This document shows, in pieces, positions 7,294-52,503 of a stretch of 64,000 bases of DNA. The notes below the pieces were generated by a model that ran no database searches, was not told where the DNA came from, and saw nothing but the letters and a program-made list of their open reading frames with translations. The position numbers were made by a program, and so were the translations under genes. Numbering within the stretch: the first letter of the stretch is position 1; every line of letters starts with the position of its first letter. This DNA is from Phyllosticta citribraziliensis (Eukaryota), in the NCBI RefSeq assembly GCF_038025025.1, contig NW_027117338.1, positions 992,001 through 1,056,000 on the forward strand. The letters run 5' to 3'.

Positions 7294-7399
7294 TCTTCCG
7301 TGGCGCAATTGGCTAGCGCGTCTGACTGTTAATTCGATTGCTCCACAAGAGCAATTGATAGCAATCAGGAGGTTGACAGTTCAAGCCTGTCCGGGAGAG
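7294..7399 (+). tRNA. tRNA-Asn(GTT) with 32-nt intron (7332-7363)
   Basis: Acceptor TCTTCCG/CGGGAGA plus G discriminator; D arm GCGC-AATTGGCTA-GCGC; anticodon stem TCTGA/TCAGG with GTT at 7328-7330; T arm GACAG-TTCAAGC-CTGTC; intron after position 37. Confidence 0.95.
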
Positions 7400-32201: not shown

Positions 32202-33532
32202 TTTGAGTGGGAGTAGTTGGTTGCAACGAAGTTGACGAGCGTTGGAGGGGTATCAAGAAAAGGTGGTGGGATGAAGAGGGGTCGTCTGGGGGCAAAGCTG
32301 TTGAAGTAGGCAAGGCTCTCGTCGAAGCTGGACGGCGGATATGAAGTAATGGAGTGGGTACAGCTGGGGTCGGGATCGCGGAGAGTAGCTCGGTCCAGGA
32401 TTTAGGGCTCGTGGTTGGGTCGCTCCTCCTCGGCAACAGTGGGAAAAAGAACGGGTCCCAAAGATCTTCAATTGATGTCACGATGAACTGGCGTGGAGGC
32501 GCTCAAGCTGGATTGGGACCTTGCCACGGCCACGGGCAGCAGATCTATATATGCGTCTGGGTCCTTGGACAGATGGCCCTTGAACGCGCAACGTACATTG
32601 CGCTGCAGTTGCTGATGGCCGAATGAAAGGGTGAGGGGCAACGGAGGCGGGCACGCGGGGTCGCGTCGAGCTTAGAGCTTGAGAAGCTCAGCCGCCACAT
32701 GCGCTCCAGCTCCCGACATCTCCCGCTCGACCGGCGGGCTGGACAGCGGCTTCGAGCCTAGACTGGGGCTTGCCGCCCGTCACGACAACGTCGAAAGTGT
32801 CCTCGTCGCGGAGCGTTCAGGAAAAATACACTCCCGTGTCTTTTCCGAGCTCGGGTGAAGACGAAGCTCGCGCGTTTGGGAGCATCCATGGCCTTCCGTG
32901 TCGGCACGCGTTCGGCGAGGTTTGAGCTGCTTCTGGCCTGGCAGGACGCTCAGGGATAGAGTCAGGAGTGTCCTCGCGGTGAGATTTGGCCGAGGAGCGA
33001 ATGCAAGCAGCTGCAGGGACTGTTGTCTGTCCTTTGGACCTTTTGCGCATTGGCGATGACAAAGGGGGCGGAAAACTCAGAGTGCGGCGTTGGCGAGCAG
33101 GGAGCCAGACAGGCGATGACGCTTGTCATGACCAAGAAGATGGTGTTGAGTCGCAGGCCTGATCAGTAACCAGGCAGGTCGCTGACCTGAAGCGGCCCAG
33201 ACCTGGAAACCCCAGCCCAGGGCAGCCCAGGGCAGCTGGACGGCACCCGACGTCATTGCGTTCCCGATCGGGTGGAGTCTGGGGCGCGGGCGCCGGTCGG
33301 CTTCGGCCCGGGGACGGCGCTGAGTTGGGTTGGGCGACGATTCGCCGCTAAGCGACAGAAATTTGTCCCTCCATCCAACAAAAGTCGTCGACAGACCTAA
33401 CTCTGTCCCTCCCACTCCATCATCCCACCACTCTCACCACAGCAGAGCTCACAATGAAGACGGGCGGCTGAGTGGCTGCTTTGTCGGCGCTGGCCTCACA
33501 GGTAAGACTCCCTCTCCTCTCCCCCCCCCCTG

Positions 33533-33627
33533 CTTCGATGATGAAAAGCAATACCACAATCAAACTAGAGTCTTTGATCTCTATCGAGAAATGAAACTTG
33601 AACTTGCTTGCACGTCAGTCTGAGAAG
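33533..33627 (+). ncRNA. snR78/snR72: Box C/D snoRNA with both snR78-type (D') and snR72-type (D) guides
   Basis: C ATGATGA 33538-33544; guide CAAACTAGAGTC + D' TTGA (25S GACUCUAGUUUG, yeast Um2421); guide TTGCACGTCAG + D CTGA 33620-33623 (25S CUGACGUGCAA, yeast Am876); terminal stem CTTC/GAAG. Confidence 0.9.
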
Positions 33628-33778
33628 TCTCAAAGCCGCCATGTTCATTCAGACATGATGCGACCGCAGCTAACGCCTGTCAAGCAGTCAGACATCCCAT
33701 CTTGCGACTTCGCGACCGTTGCGCGCACCGCCAACTTCCTGTACGTATCTCGACTCCCATCTCTCCCGTCCCACAAGC

Positions 33779-33867
33779 CCACAAGATGATCATCGTGTTT
33801 ACACGCTGGAAATTACCGTCAGAGACCTTCGGGTTTTAGAAGATAACAATAGGCTGTTTCTGAGCAA
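33779..33867 (+). ncRNA. snR77: Box C/D snoRNA snR77 homolog (18S Um578 equivalent)
   Basis: C-like AAGATGA 33783-33789; guide GCTGGAAATTACCG + D' CAGA versus 18S CGGUAAUUCCAGC; D CTGA 33860-33863. Confidence 0.85.
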
Positions 33868-33992
33868 GCTTTTCACACGCGCATTGACATTCATCGCACC
33901 GTTGGACCAGCTGCTAACGGCTCACAGATCTAGGAGCTGAAGGCCTGGTTTCCTTACGGTACGATCTTGCCTTCCCAGCTATTTCGAATCAT

Positions 33993-34080
33993 CTCGAATG
34001 ATGAATGGCACTGGGCTCCGAACAGCATGACGGATACGCCCCATCGCGGCAGGCCTAGAAAACCTCGCCCACTGATCTCG
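33993..34080 (+). ncRNA. snR76: Box C/D snoRNA snR76 homolog (25S Cm2197 equivalent)
   Basis: C ATGATGA 33998-34004; guide GCACTGGGC + D' CCGA versus 25S GCCCAGUGC; internal GGCCTAGAAAAC as in yeast snR76; D CTGA 34072-34075. Confidence 0.88.
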
Positions 34081-34230
34081 CACCGGCACACTCGCTATTT
34101 CAGTATCATGGCTAGTTCTCAAGCTGAGACATGAATTTCAGGCAGCACAATGGCGTTATCACCCAGCATCGCCGTCGATTCTCCCACGAGTGGTAAGTCA
34201 CGAGAGCTTATTTCTTTTCGCAAAACACGA

Positions 34231-34322
34231 CCATCATGATGAACCCTTAGATGACGAGTCTTATCGGGGTTTCCCATGCAGACAACACTTTTTCAAATAC
34301 CATTCATGCCTAACTGAATTTT
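34231..34322 (+). ncRNA. snR75: Box C/D snoRNA snR75 homolog (25S Gm2288 equivalent)
   Basis: C ATGATGA 34236-34242; guide TTAGATGACGAG + D' CTTA versus 25S CUCGUCAUCUAA; second element CCATTCATGC; D CTGA 34314-34317. Confidence 0.9.
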
Positions 34323-34445
34323 CGGTCAAAATCTTGTTGCTTTACTTGGGTCTTTGTCGACGCATTCTAACAAGTCACAGACCCAAACCGCTCCTGTAGT
34401 CGTCGCATTGAAGAGTACGTCTCGCGCCGTCGAAGTCCTTTGAAC

Positions 34446-34527
34446 TCAACATGATGAAACGACATTACAAATTGACAAGCATATGTCCAAGCCCTAGGGC
34501 GAAGACGAGACTGTCTTTTCTGAATCC
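34446..34527 (+). ncRNA. snR74: Box C/D snoRNA snR74 homolog (18S Am28 equivalent)
   Basis: C ATGATGA 34451-34457; guide GACAAGCATATG + D' CCAA versus 18S CAUAUGCUUGUC; hairpin GCCC-TA-GGGC; D CTGA 34520-34523. Confidence 0.9.
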
Positions 34528-34667
34528 ATCACCGAGAGATCAGTCCAGAATGCTGAAAAGGGTTTCTGGGCTAACATGAGACCTCAGGATTTTGAAGAAT
34601 TGGTGGGACCCGAAAAGTCTTCACAACTTCGACAGGTACGTATCCACAACATCATCTTCTCTCCCCT

Positions 34668-34763
34668 TTTACATGATGATTCTTTTTCAATCTCACGACG
34701 GTCGACATAGCCACACGTTGGCATTGATGAGAACGCCCGCTGACACGGGCTTAATCTGAAAAC
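34668..34763 (+). ncRNA. snR73: Box C/D snoRNA snR73 homolog (25S Cm2959 equivalent)
   Basis: C ATGATGA 34673-34679; guide TCTCACGACGGTC + D' CATA versus 25S GACCGUCGUGAGA; C' TTGATGA 34724-34730; hairpin GCCCG-CTGACA-CGGGC; D CTGA 34756-34759. Confidence 0.9.
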
Positions 34764-35465
34764 CATTCATGTCATTACTTGCTTCGAACTCTTTGAGAAT
34801 CTCGCTGACATGTTCTTCAGATCCACCGTCCTTGTGACTTGGTCGCTTCCACGTGTTGGGTTTTTCAATGATCATTTCGCCTTGCGCGGGAGGTTGTAGA
34901 GAAACACGTTGGGTCATGCTCATGGCACTGTTCTTAATGCTTGTGCTGGAGTCATCCAATGTACAAGATCCACGCCATGATACCTTTGCATGCTGCTCGA
35001 GTTTGAATGTTTAGATGTTGGTATTGGCTGCCGCTCTGCACAAAGCAACCAAGATCTATGCTTCCCACGCTGTCTAGCCCCTTGTTCAATGCTGTGTCTA
35101 GCCTGATCGTCCTTCTCCAACGCCACCTTTTTGTACATGACGTAGTTGCTCGTCTCACGGCTCGATCTTTTTGAACACCAATGCCTTGTCCTGCCATAGC
35201 CATTCGCGAGATGACCTTGAGATACTGTCGTGGAGACCCGTTCATTCGCTCTGCGGCCCAAATTATACCATCACGGTGGGTGTCGAAGGAAATGGGACCT
35301 CCTGGCAATGCGAGCGCATCTGGGGGAGAATTCCTTTACTGCCACAGTTGCGTTATGGAGCGTTTAGCTGTAGCTGCGCTCAGGGAGCCGTCACTCATTT
35401 CCGCGGCCACACTCAGGGAGTCTGTCTCATTTCTTTCGACGCCCACTGTGCCATTGCCCATCCCA

Positions 35466-35828
35466 CTATGATCCAGACTCTTTGGATCCCCCCTCGAGAG
35501 TCGGTAGGTCCATGCCAACCCTCCTCGCCGAGAGCCGAACGCGCTCCTCGTCGGTCAGATTCGCTCCGGGGTTGTAGCGTTCGACCAAGGTGATGTACAT
35601 GCGCTGCGCTCTTGCGTATTGCGCATACTGTTCCGTCTCCTCGACGGACGGCGTGCGCACGGGCTGCTGCTCAGCTGGGGTCTGGAGCGAGCTTCGGATG
35701 TGGTGTTGCAGTGGCGAAGGGTTCGAGAGTATGGATTGCGAGGCGCGCGTGCTGGCGGCGTGTTTTGCCGGGCGCGATGGTAGCTCGCGCAGGAGGCGTC
35801 GATAGAGGGAGCGGAGTTGCGGAGACAT
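35466..35828 (-). CDS. FMC1: Mitochondrial ATP synthase assembly factor Fmc1 (LYR family)
   Basis: LRSLYRRLLRELP N-terminus and YARAQRMYITLVERYNPG...EERVRLSARRVGMDLP C-terminus. Confidence 0.9.
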   Translation of the reverse strand: MSPQLRSLYRRLLRELPSRPAKHAASTRASQSILSNPSPLQHHIRSSLQTPAEQQPVRTPSVEETEQYAQYARAQRMYITLVERYNPGANLTDEERVRLSARRVGMDLPTLEGGSKESGS

Positions 35829-36027
35829 GCTGGACTAGCTCTGAGCCGGGTTTGAGGGCTGTTGGATAGGTTGGAGGCGCTAGGTAGAGCAATCAGGCGG
35901 ATGTGGGTGCGTGTAGTGGTGGAGAGAGATATGCGGATAATTTGCGGAGAAGCGGCGGTATGTTTTCTCCTCCGATCACCAGCTCCCACCCGACACTTTT
36001 CTCTCCAAACATTCTACGCCCCTTGCA

Positions 36028-37617
36028 ATGCTGAAGATACCCGGCGTGGCATCTGCGACATTATCTCGACACAGCCTTCGAAGTCTTGAACGACGGCTTC
36101 TCATCCCGCACCATGGCATCGTGTTCCAACGAGCCAACTCCAAGTCACCTCAACTTGCGAAGACACGATTAGAGCGAAGGGGATTCGAATTACCAAAACG
36201 CAGCACTGGCTTCGTAGGACAATCAAAACGAAAAGTCAGGACACCTGAGGTTGTGGAGAAAAGACAAGCGCGAAAGTTGAAGAAAAGGGAGCGGGAGGCC
36301 CAATCAGCGCGGGACCGGCAGACACGATCAGAATCACCTGGACATAGGAAAACGAGAGAGTCAGAAAGAGTTGATCTACCAAAACACAGCACTGGCCCCG
36401 TTGCAGGATCAAAATCGAAGGTCACGGCACCTGAGGTTCCGGAGAAAACACAAACACAAAGGTCGAAGAAGCGGGAGCGGGAGGTTCAAAAGTCGACGAA
36501 GCAATCAGTCCAGGGCCGGCAGACACGATCAGAATCATCTGGACATGGGAAAATGAGTGAGGCAGAAGGTTTCAATGTGCCAATCAGACGTGTCAATGGG
36601 GAAATTTTTGGAAGACATAAATTACTCGAACAAGGGTTAGATGTAGATGTGCCAATTCGCCAACTCGACCCATACTGGAAGAAAGACCCCCCTCAGAGTA
36701 CACGGCTCGGACATATACGAAATCCCGATTTCCCAAGACCCAACGAGCCGCACTTTTACGTCGACACAGCTCCACCTTCCGATGATCAGCTGCGAGATGC
36801 CCGACCGTTCTTCCTAAACACGATTCCCAAGTTCGCCTTTTCATGCAGCCACTTCGCCGACTTTCCAAAGAGCGACGTCCCCGAATTCGCCTTCATCGGC
36901 CGCAGCAACGTGGGGAAAAGCAGCCTGTTGAACGCCCTATTCTACGGTCACTCTTACAACAAGCAGCAGGAAAAGGAGCTGGCAAGAGTTGGGGCACGCG
37001 CAGGACTGACGAAGCTCATGAATGTCTTTCTGGCGGGCGACATAGACGGCGGCACCGAGATCAAACAACACAATGGAAAAAAGAGGACAGAGCGGTGGAT
37101 CAGGGCCGGACGCGGTATTGCCATTGTTGACATGCCTGGTTACGGCTTTGGAAGTCACGATTCCCAAGGCGAAGAGATAATCAAGTACCTGTCGCGGCGA
37201 ACACAACTGCGGCGGACTTTTGTTCTGATCAACGGCGAACACGGGCCGACGAATCTCGACTTGGAAATGTTCAAAATCATGGCGCAGGCGGGAATATCGT
37301 ACCAGATAGTCTTGACCAAGACGGACAAGTGCTTGAGCCCGGGGAATGATATCCCCTCGGTCATCCGGCTCAGATACGGGCTGGAGCTGTTGCAACGGAC
37401 CAAGTCACAGCTTGACGAGATGGTCAAGCCGCCTCTGAGAGACGTCCTGTGCGTCAGTGCGGAAAAGTCCCTCTACTCGGAAGGACGATCCAAGAATGAT
37501 ATGATTGGCATGAATGCGCTGCGCTTGGCCATGTTGCAAGCTGCCTCGATGGCCCGGGAAGAACCCCTTCCACTACCCATCGCCAAGATTGACCCAAAGG
37601 AAAATATGAGGAAATAG
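36028..37617 (+). CDS. EngB/YihA-family GTPase, probably mitochondrial (Mrx8/GTPBP8-like)
   Basis: G1 GRSNVGKSS, G2 AGLTK, G3 DMPGYG, G4 TKTD, G5 VSA; Arg/Ser/Leu-rich N-terminus; head-to-head with FMC1. Confidence 0.88.
   Translation: MLKIPGVASATLSRHSLRSLERRLLIPHHGIVFQRANSKSPQLAKTRLERRGFELPKRSTGFVGQSKRKVRTPEVVEKRQARKLKKREREAQSARDRQTRSESPGHRKTRESERVDLPKHSTGPVAGSKSKVTAPEVPEKTQTQRSKKREREVQKSTKQSVQGRQTRSESSGHGKMSEAEGFNVPIRRVNGEIFGRHKLLEQGLDVDVPIRQLDPYWKKDPPQSTRLGHIRNPDFPRPNEPHFYVDTAPPSDDQLRDARPFFLNTIPKFAFSCSHFADFPKSDVPEFAFIGRSNVGKSSLLNALFYGHSYNKQQEKELARVGARAGLTKLMNVFLAGDIDGGTEIKQHNGKKRTERWIRAGRGIAIVDMPGYGFGSHDSQGEEIIKYLSRRTQLRRTFVLINGEHGPTNLDLEMFKIMAQAGISYQIVLTKTDKCLSPGNDIPSVIRLRYGLELLQRTKSQLDEMVKPPLRDVLCVSAEKSLYSEGRSKNDMIGMNALRLAMLQAASMAREEPLPLPIAKIDPKENMRK
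36191..36578 (+). repeat. Intragenic tandem duplication (~186-200 nt unit) in the EngB N-terminal extension
   Basis: TACCAAAAC(G/A)CAGCACTGGC at 36191 and 36377; both units contain CACCTGAGGTT, GGGAGCGGGAGG and CCGGCAGACACGATCAGAATCA. Confidence 0.9.
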
Positions 37618-51712: not shown

Positions 51713-52503
51713 GTTGGCAGTGCAATTGAATGCGAGTCTTGATCTTCACATCAAACGCCCCCGTGTGCCAGTCGGACCGACCCCTGCCTATCCCTTCTGA
51801 ACCCCACTCAAAAGCGAAATCCTCCACCACACTGAAATGTCAAAAGGGTTGAACGCTGGCTTCATGGTCGCTGTGTCAAATGGCTGCTCTTTGATGTCTG
51901 CCGCCGTGTCGGCTGGTCGCTCCCAAGTTTCAGACATGCCGTTTTGTTCAACACCAACTATTCTGGTCCACGCCCACAAAAAGACAAAACGTACAACAGC
52001 CGGGATTCGCTGCTGGTCACCCACGCAACTACTAATCGGCCGCAAGGTAGCTTATCTATGGAAGAGCGGACGGGGTTCCGAGTTTTCTACCTGCTATGGT
52101 CGTACGTGGAAGTTATGGTTACTTTTTTGCACTATATTCAACACACACGTAATGGTGCGAGACATCAACAACGTTCTGGACGACGTCGTTCTTGAAGGGC
52201 ACCTATTCGCGTCTCAAAACGATGGCTACCAGACTGTGCAAGAGCCAATGGTGCGAAAGCGTTGAAGGTGCGACGAAAACGTTTGTCGAGGCTACGGCCA
52301 TGACGGCGTCATGATTTTGTTGGCCTTCCTGGTCCTTCTTGCTTGTCCATTGACTGCTTCCCATCTCCACTCTTGCAGAGCCCGAAAGCTTGAAGAGTTC
52401 TTGTGGGCCCGGGGAGACGATTTCTTCGTGTGCTGCAGTCCACGATATTTCGGTGAATCTTTCTCACGGGCCCGTAGATCTTCTGGATGCCGGGGATTTT
52501 CTC

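Follow-up and report, generated by a model that had tools for sequence, protein, structure and literature searches.

The closest described counterparts of the RNA considered here come from other ascomycetes. In Neurospora crassa, an intronic RNA of 80 nt, CD5, is listed in Table 1 of the original survey with a D guide for 26S-Am856 (as homologue of snR72) and a D' guide for 26S-Um2383 (as homologue of snR78), and the host genes of the N. crassa clusters are described there as UHG-like, with short reading frames only (Liu 2009, BMC Genomics 10:515). In yeast numbering the two sites are 25S-Am876, the D target of snR72, and 25S-Um2421, the D' target of snR78; the N. crassa names 26S-Am856 and 26S-Um2383 stand for the same positions (Liu 2009; Canzler 2018). 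The cluster of budding yeast is reported in the order snR78-77-76-75-74-73-72 (Luo 2013, PLoS One 8:e58547), which agrees with the statement of an earlier note on this DNA that snR78 and snR72 are separate RNAs at opposite ends of the yeast cluster. The same report places an snR78/72 intron in all Euascomycetes examined and in Yarrowia lipolytica (Luo 2013), and a later treatment of fungal snoRNAs files the dual RNA as clan CD_5 in its section 'Target switches' (Canzler 2018, RNA 24:342).

The window, by which we mean the whole stretch of 64,000 nucleotides that was analysed, holds an RNA of this kind. A guide of the 25S-2421 type at D' and a guide of the 25S-876 type at D are joined in one molecule at 33533-33627 on the plus strand, and we are highly confident that this locus is the orthologue of N. 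crassa CD5, the 'snR78/72' RNA and the fungal family CD_5, with two 2'-O-methylations of the LSU rRNA as its predicted products. The earlier note had read the locus as one RNA carrying an snR78-type guide before D' and an snR72-type guide before D. This structural reading is right and has been in print since 2009. The observation is confirmed but already known: papers of 2009, 2013 and 2018 describe the family, to which the locus adds one more member. The RNA, the two targets, the position it takes in the cluster and the two evolutionary scenarios were all published between 2009 and 2018, and the finding itself matters little. The parts of the RNA are these:

33533..33627 (+), the complete box C/D snoRNA with both guides, 95 nt when the terminal stem is counted; delimited by box layout, sub-threshold Rfam alignments and 25 other variants
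33533-33536 / 33624-33627 (+), terminal stem CUUC / GAAG, four Watson-Crick pairs, separated from the C box by a single unpaired G; from the sequence
33538-33544 (+), C box AUGAUGA; from the sequence, with GAUGA invariant in 26 of 26 aligned variants
between C box and D' guide (+), spacer 1, 16 nt; from the sequence
33561-33572 (+), D' guide CAAACTAGAGTC (= CAAACUAGAGUC), snR78 type; agrees with the snR78 consensus in 11 of 11 letters
33574-33577 (+), D' box UUGA, non-canonical, one base past the D' guide; CUUUGA invariant in 26 of 26 variants
33578-33589 (+), D'-C' hairpin UCUC/GAGA, 4 bp, loop UAUC; by RNAfold, 22 of 26 variants having 3 bp or more here
33590-33596 (+), C' box AAUGAAA, degenerate; three A columns invariant in 26 variants
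between C' box and D guide (+), spacer 2; from the sequence
33608-33618 (+), D guide TTGCACGTCAG (= UUGCACGUCAG), snR72 type; 11 LSU pairs, and 16 of 16 letters identical to snoZ122 when the D box is included
33620-33623 (+), D box CUGA, one base past the D guide; from the sequence

This is a real box C/D snoRNA, with all expected parts present and correctly spaced. An RUGAUGA C box lies near the 5' end, a CUGA D box near the 3' end and a short terminal stem encloses both, while an rRNA-complementary antisense element (~10+ nt) ends one base before D or D'. Both guide strings were placed exactly in the earlier note: the D' string at 33561-33572 equals the Rfam snR78 consensus guide CAAACUAGAGU in all 11 letters, and the D string at 33608-33618 sits before the D box and makes 11 pairs with the LSU rRNA. 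Each string is unique in the window. The D' 12-mer, with at most one mismatch, matches once in the 64 kb (0.20 expected from 100 shuffles), and the 16-mer of D guide plus D box, with at most two mismatches, likewise once (0.04 expected from shuffles).

The relation to Rfam models is less direct. The full-length alignment to the snR78 model (RF01176), whose gathering score is 48, reaches 24.8 bits (E 0.038 on 131 nt), and the RNA is therefore not a member of that family at the gathering level. The plant model snoZ122 (RF00343) reaches 23 bits against a gathering score of 38, and no family named snR72 matches at E <= 10, even with a 47-nt query stretch. The check that the earlier note had proposed, that both Rfam models should match at this locus, thus fails formally (24.8 below 48 bits for snR78, and no snR72 family at E <= 10). 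Both snR78 and snoZ122 describe single-guide RNAs that share only their guide segments with the window RNA: what resembles the snR78 model is the 5' half, and the resemblance to snoZ122 is confined to the 3' guide and D box. In control genomes the snR78 model gave no match.

Compared one by one, the known single-guide RNAs each resemble one part of the molecule. S. cerevisiae snR78 has in common with it the C box, the D' guide (11 of 11 consensus letters) and the 5'-most place in the cluster, but carries a single guide, a CUGA D' box (Rfam consensus) and a C' box described as 'split', whereas the window RNA has two guides and UUGA. S. cerevisiae snR72 shares the function of the D guide, with 25S-Am876 given as its D target (Canzler 2018), and differs in being a separate RNA at the cluster's 3' end. 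With plant snoZ122 (RF00343) the D guide and D box are identical at 16 of 16 letters; the remainder is unrelated, and the full-length alignment treats the D'-guide stretch of the window RNA as an insertion. We infer that snoZ122 is the plant counterpart of snR72; the table of Liu 2009 uses the name snoR72Y. The dual RNAs are much closer. N. crassa CD5, likened here by its published description, is likewise an intron-encoded dual-guide box C/D RNA with the same D and D' targets, and is listed at 80 nt as against ~87-95 nt here, depending on where the ends are set. The snR78/72 (CD_5) RNA of Euascomycetes and Yarrowia also heads an snR77-76-75-74-73 cluster and directs D' to 25S-2421 and D to 25S-876; in the published accounts, so far as they go, we found no difference between it and the window RNA.

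To place the guides on their targets, LSU rRNA was located through a 16-nt motif around the expected A site. The 18 loci that this motif picked out in viral contigs contained no rDNA and are chance matches. Assemblies of prokaryotes gave 83 loci, 28 of which have a eukaryote-type context. Seven eukaryotic LSU loci made up the pairing set; six of them were scored with Rfam (L098 being left out of that scoring), and all six were recognised as LSU_rRNA_eukarya, at 1424-2782 bits. In all seven, the D guide forms 11 contiguous Watson-Crick pairs, at -19.0 kcal/mol. Counting five bases upstream from the D box leads to the U at 33615, which faces the A of CUG-A-CG in LSU domain II; the same count from the D' box leads to the A at 33569, whose predicted target is a U in domain V. 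The domain V site reads GACUCUAG plus variable letters in the four loci that extend far enough, all of them non-fungal at the site, and there the D' guide makes 7-9 contiguous pairs with GACUCUAG-type sites. The distance of about 1.5 kb between the two targets, as the earlier note had put it, holds in these four loci, where the second site follows 1534-1840 nt downstream of the first. Among the 83 loci from prokaryote assemblies, each one with a GTCGAATTTGGG- or GTCAAATTTGGG-type context stops short of the domain V site.

The 28 loci of eukaryote type among these 83 are an observation of their own, since they are filed under genomes of bacterial or archaeal species. They are L063, L070, L074, L081, L083, L086, L088, L090, L091, L093, L096, L098, L103, L105, L107, L111-L114, L120, L127, L128, L132, L134, L137, L139, L141 and L143, and two of them hold a whole rDNA unit with SSU and 5.8S. 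This stray rDNA, found mostly on short contigs of low coverage, is likely contamination. For L111, the contig around the eukaryote-type LSU rDNA measures 532 kb and is filed as an Actinomycetota MAG.

Conservation of the dual RNA was followed in metagenomes with a pattern that required both guides exactly, 15-45 nt apart. The scan returned 42 loci with both guides; 39 of these hold the full RNA, in 25 distinct full-length sequences besides that of the window, and in the other three (L001, L027 and L032) the 5' part is missing from the available sequence. The invariance of the guides across the 42 loci proves nothing, because the pattern fixed them. Outside the scan requirement, 26 of 26 aligned variants agree on the C-box letters GAUGA, on CUUUGA at D' and on three A's in the C' box, which otherwise varies (ACUGAAA, UAUGAAA, AAUGGAA). 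RNAfold gives the linker between D' and C' a stem of at least 3 bp in 22 of the 26 variants, with differing letters in the stem, and RNAalifold on the 26 variants predicts the D'-C' hairpin only (-1.51 kcal/mol), with three predicted pairs changed on both sides. The scan shows that the dual form is widespread; the frequency of separate guides lies outside its scope.

For the 20 of the 42 loci with most sequence (3.3-5.1 kb), the surroundings were checked with Rfam. Afu_300, Afu_513 and snR75 follow downstream in the same order and on the same strand in all 20, and in 10 of them the cluster position of snR73 is also recognised by the snR73 model at its gathering score. None of the 20 loci has a match at gathering level on the dual RNA itself. 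An annotation gap follows: no model of Rfam release 15 reaches its gathering score on the dual RNA, in the window or in the 20 related loci, and Pezizomycotina genomes annotated through Rfam will therefore lack it. In the window's cluster, snoRNAs 5 and 6 fall short of their gathering scores as well. An Rfam family could be seeded from the 26 aligned variants. In five loci (L008, L012, L024, L028 and L031) the gap between Afu_300 and Afu_513 measures ~430-470 nt, compared with ~130-150 nt elsewhere; a crude motif scan found no C/D snoRNA in this gap in L008.

A further observation concerns the two spacers of the RNA. AAGCAA (33546-33551), after the C box, is complementary to UUGCUU (33604-33609), which precedes the D guide and overlaps its start. 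Among the 26 variants, the duplex of spacer 1 with its own spacer 2 averages -2.89 kcal/mol as against -2.15 for swapped partners, and 18 of 20,000 permutations were as good (0.0009), a figure that ignores kinship among the variants. The pairing is absent in two lineages (L008/L012 type). Spacer-to-spacer pairing is only a lead, suggested by these alignments.

In the window, the dual RNA is the first of six snoRNAs that lie one per intron (78/72, 77, 76, 75, 74, 73), as is described for the CD_5 family: homologues of snR77, 76, 75, 74 and 73 follow the first member, and the cluster has no snR72 at its 3' end. The introns and their snoRNAs are:

33502..33687 (+), intron 1, 186 nt, GU..AG, CUAAC at 33670, with 31 nt between its 5' splice site and the dual RNA and 60 nt between the dual RNA and its 3' splice site; placed relative to a spliced contig of a relative
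33779..33865 (+), snoRNA 2, Afu_300, in the snR77 position, intron 33741-33927; Rfam 73.9 bits (gathering 40), and a weak snoR77Y match
33994..34077 (+), snoRNA 3, Afu_513, in the snR76 position, intron 33959-34141; Rfam 80.3 bits (gathering 48)
34234..34319 (+), snoRNA 4, snR75, intron 34193-34380; Rfam 84.6 bits (gathering 40)
34446..34523 (+), snoRNA 5, SNORD27-like, in the snR74 position, intron 34415-34587; SNORD27 18.4 bits (gathering 52), the identity following presumptively from cluster order
34674..34762 (+), snoRNA 6, SNORD35/snR73 clan, in the snR73 position, intron 34636-34820; SNORD35 31.3 bits (gathering 36)

The layout (33502-34820) is very regular: all six introns are canonical GU..AG introns of 173-188 nt, with 31-41 nt separating the 5' splice site from the snoRNA and 58-64 nt separating the snoRNA from the 3' splice site. 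Removal of three of the introns is seen in contigs from public runs. For intron 1, a contig of run X17, on record as RNA-Seq, joins 33498 to 33685 (cut ambiguity +3, GT..AG). For introns 4 and 5, run X16 shows the joints 34191 to 34380 and 34414 to 34588, both GT..AG; the kind of this run is only guessed, though its contig is spliced. As the X16 and X17 contigs are 90-95% alike to the window, they come from relatives and not from this strain. In the contigs of all four public runs, 33544-33665 is uncovered. The approximate spliced host transcript contains no ATG reading frame of more than 67 codons. Run X4 contributes two contigs that match the window exactly and run out into sequencing-adapter letters. 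Spanning 34245-34377 and 34465-34808, they cover unspliced intron sequence around snoRNAs 4 and 6.

The earlier note had also stated that no seventh snoRNA follows snR73, and the search for a second D guide supports this. With at most two substitutions allowed, a single copy of D guide plus D box is present in the window and in each of the 42 related loci, so that in these 43 sources no seventh, snR72-like RNA comes after the sixth snoRNA. A crude C/D motif scan of 33400-36100 returned the dual RNA and two spurious candidates; as it missed snoRNAs 2-6, it is too insensitive to count against a seventh snoRNA.

By the general rules for box C/D snoRNPs, the host transcript would be spliced and the RNA then trimmed out of intron 1. 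Core proteins would assemble on its C/D and C'/D' motifs, and the resulting dual snoRNP would direct two 2'-O-methylations of the LSU rRNA, the target in each case being the partner of the fifth nucleotide upstream of the D' or D box. The D' guide would select the U equivalent to yeast 25S-U2421 in domain V, and the D guide the A equivalent to yeast 25S-A876 in domain II. One could instead suppose that a single guide is active and the other is a relic, as the non-canonical D' box (UUGA) and the degenerate C' box might suggest. Yet conservation or covariation is seen in CUUUGA, the C' box and the D'-C' hairpin, none of which the scan demanded, divergent C'/D' motifs, that of snR78 included, are reported from yeast to be as active as the consensus motif, and the D guide makes 11 perfect pairs with LSU rRNA. 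A relic guide is on this evidence very improbable, and we keep to the prediction of two methylations.

The earlier note went further and proposed that a single RNP binds both LSU sites at once and, as a folding chaperone, ties domain II to domain V over about 1.5 kb. Both sites do lie on one rRNA, 1534-1840 nt apart, and both guides are by construction in one RNP. S. cerevisiae, however, carries the guides on separate RNAs and its whole cluster is called non-essential in the literature, and fission yeasts join the guide of 876 type to one of 817 type (snR60-I in the table of Liu 2009; Canzler 2018), a combination which means that the pairing of 2421 and 876 guides is not conserved. Nor does spacer 1 show consistent extra complementarity to the LSU rRNA: in most of 12 variants, on two LSU fragments, shuffled sequences do equally well or better, and next to the A site its duplex is at the median no better than 14-16% of all windows. 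Spacer 1 of the RNA studied here has a 9-bp LSU match ~1278 nt downstream, which 6 of 300 shuffles equal on L114 and 23 of 300 on L074. For spacer 1 of the other 11 variants the corresponding counts are 64-266 of 300 on L114 and 1-236 of 300 on L074, and the variant with the lowest (L036, 1 of 300 on L074) has its match at an unrelated place. The 9-bp match, reproduced neither across variants nor against shuffles, was rejected as chance, and with it extra pairing between spacer 1 and the LSU rRNA. We consider simultaneous bridging highly improbable. Fainter still is the prospect that the guides have been kept on one RNA in filamentous ascomycetes since the RNP engages domains II and V of the nascent LSU together, as a transient tether in 60S assembly, with the spacer helix (33546-33551/33604-33609) perhaps setting the geometry of the guide strands; what speaks for it is that the guides share one RNA and that the spacers are slightly more complementary than expected.

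How the two guides came to share an RNA has been discussed before, and published work leaves a split and a fusion undecided. The earlier note held that an ancestral dual RNA was duplicated and specialised in yeasts. In its fuller form, the ancestral dual RNA would have been split or duplicated in budding yeasts after the divergence of Yarrowia into snR78 (5') and snR72 (3') with one guide each. This account is already in print, as the second possibility of Liu 2009 and as hypothesis A of Canzler 2018; the rival fusion is in print as well and the choice is left open there. In that rival, ancestral single-guide RNAs of snR78 (5') and snR72 (3') type recombined independently in Pezizomycotina and in Yarrowia, with loss of the snR72 intron. 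It is the first suggestion of Liu 2009 and hypothesis B of Canzler 2018, and Luo 2013 reads the dual RNA as a recombination product, the snR78/72 intron having in its words 'came from recombination'. The distribution of similarity in the window RNA, to the snR78 model in the 5' half and to plant Z122 only in the 3' guide and D box, would fit a fusion. Against this, the same fusion with the same placement of guides would be needed twice, which Canzler 2018 calls coincidental, and the 26 aligned variants show no visible fusion scar. Given that Luo 2013 reports the dual form from Y. lipolytica as well as from every Euascomycete examined, one split would be simpler than two identical fusions. Yeast snR72 is moreover reported to bind core proteins still at a conserved C'/D' motif beside an inactive guide, as would fit the loss of a second guide. 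We put the split at about even chances and an independent double fusion at somewhat below even, and lean slightly to the split because the same fusion twice is less economical.

Two further RNA genes were noticed in the window away from this cluster. A 5S rRNA gene (51988-52107, minus strand, 85.8 bits) stands alone, apart from other rRNA genes of the window, and a tRNA gene (7294-7399, plus strand, 47.9 bits) carries an insertion of 33 nt, presumably an intron, following the anticodon loop position.
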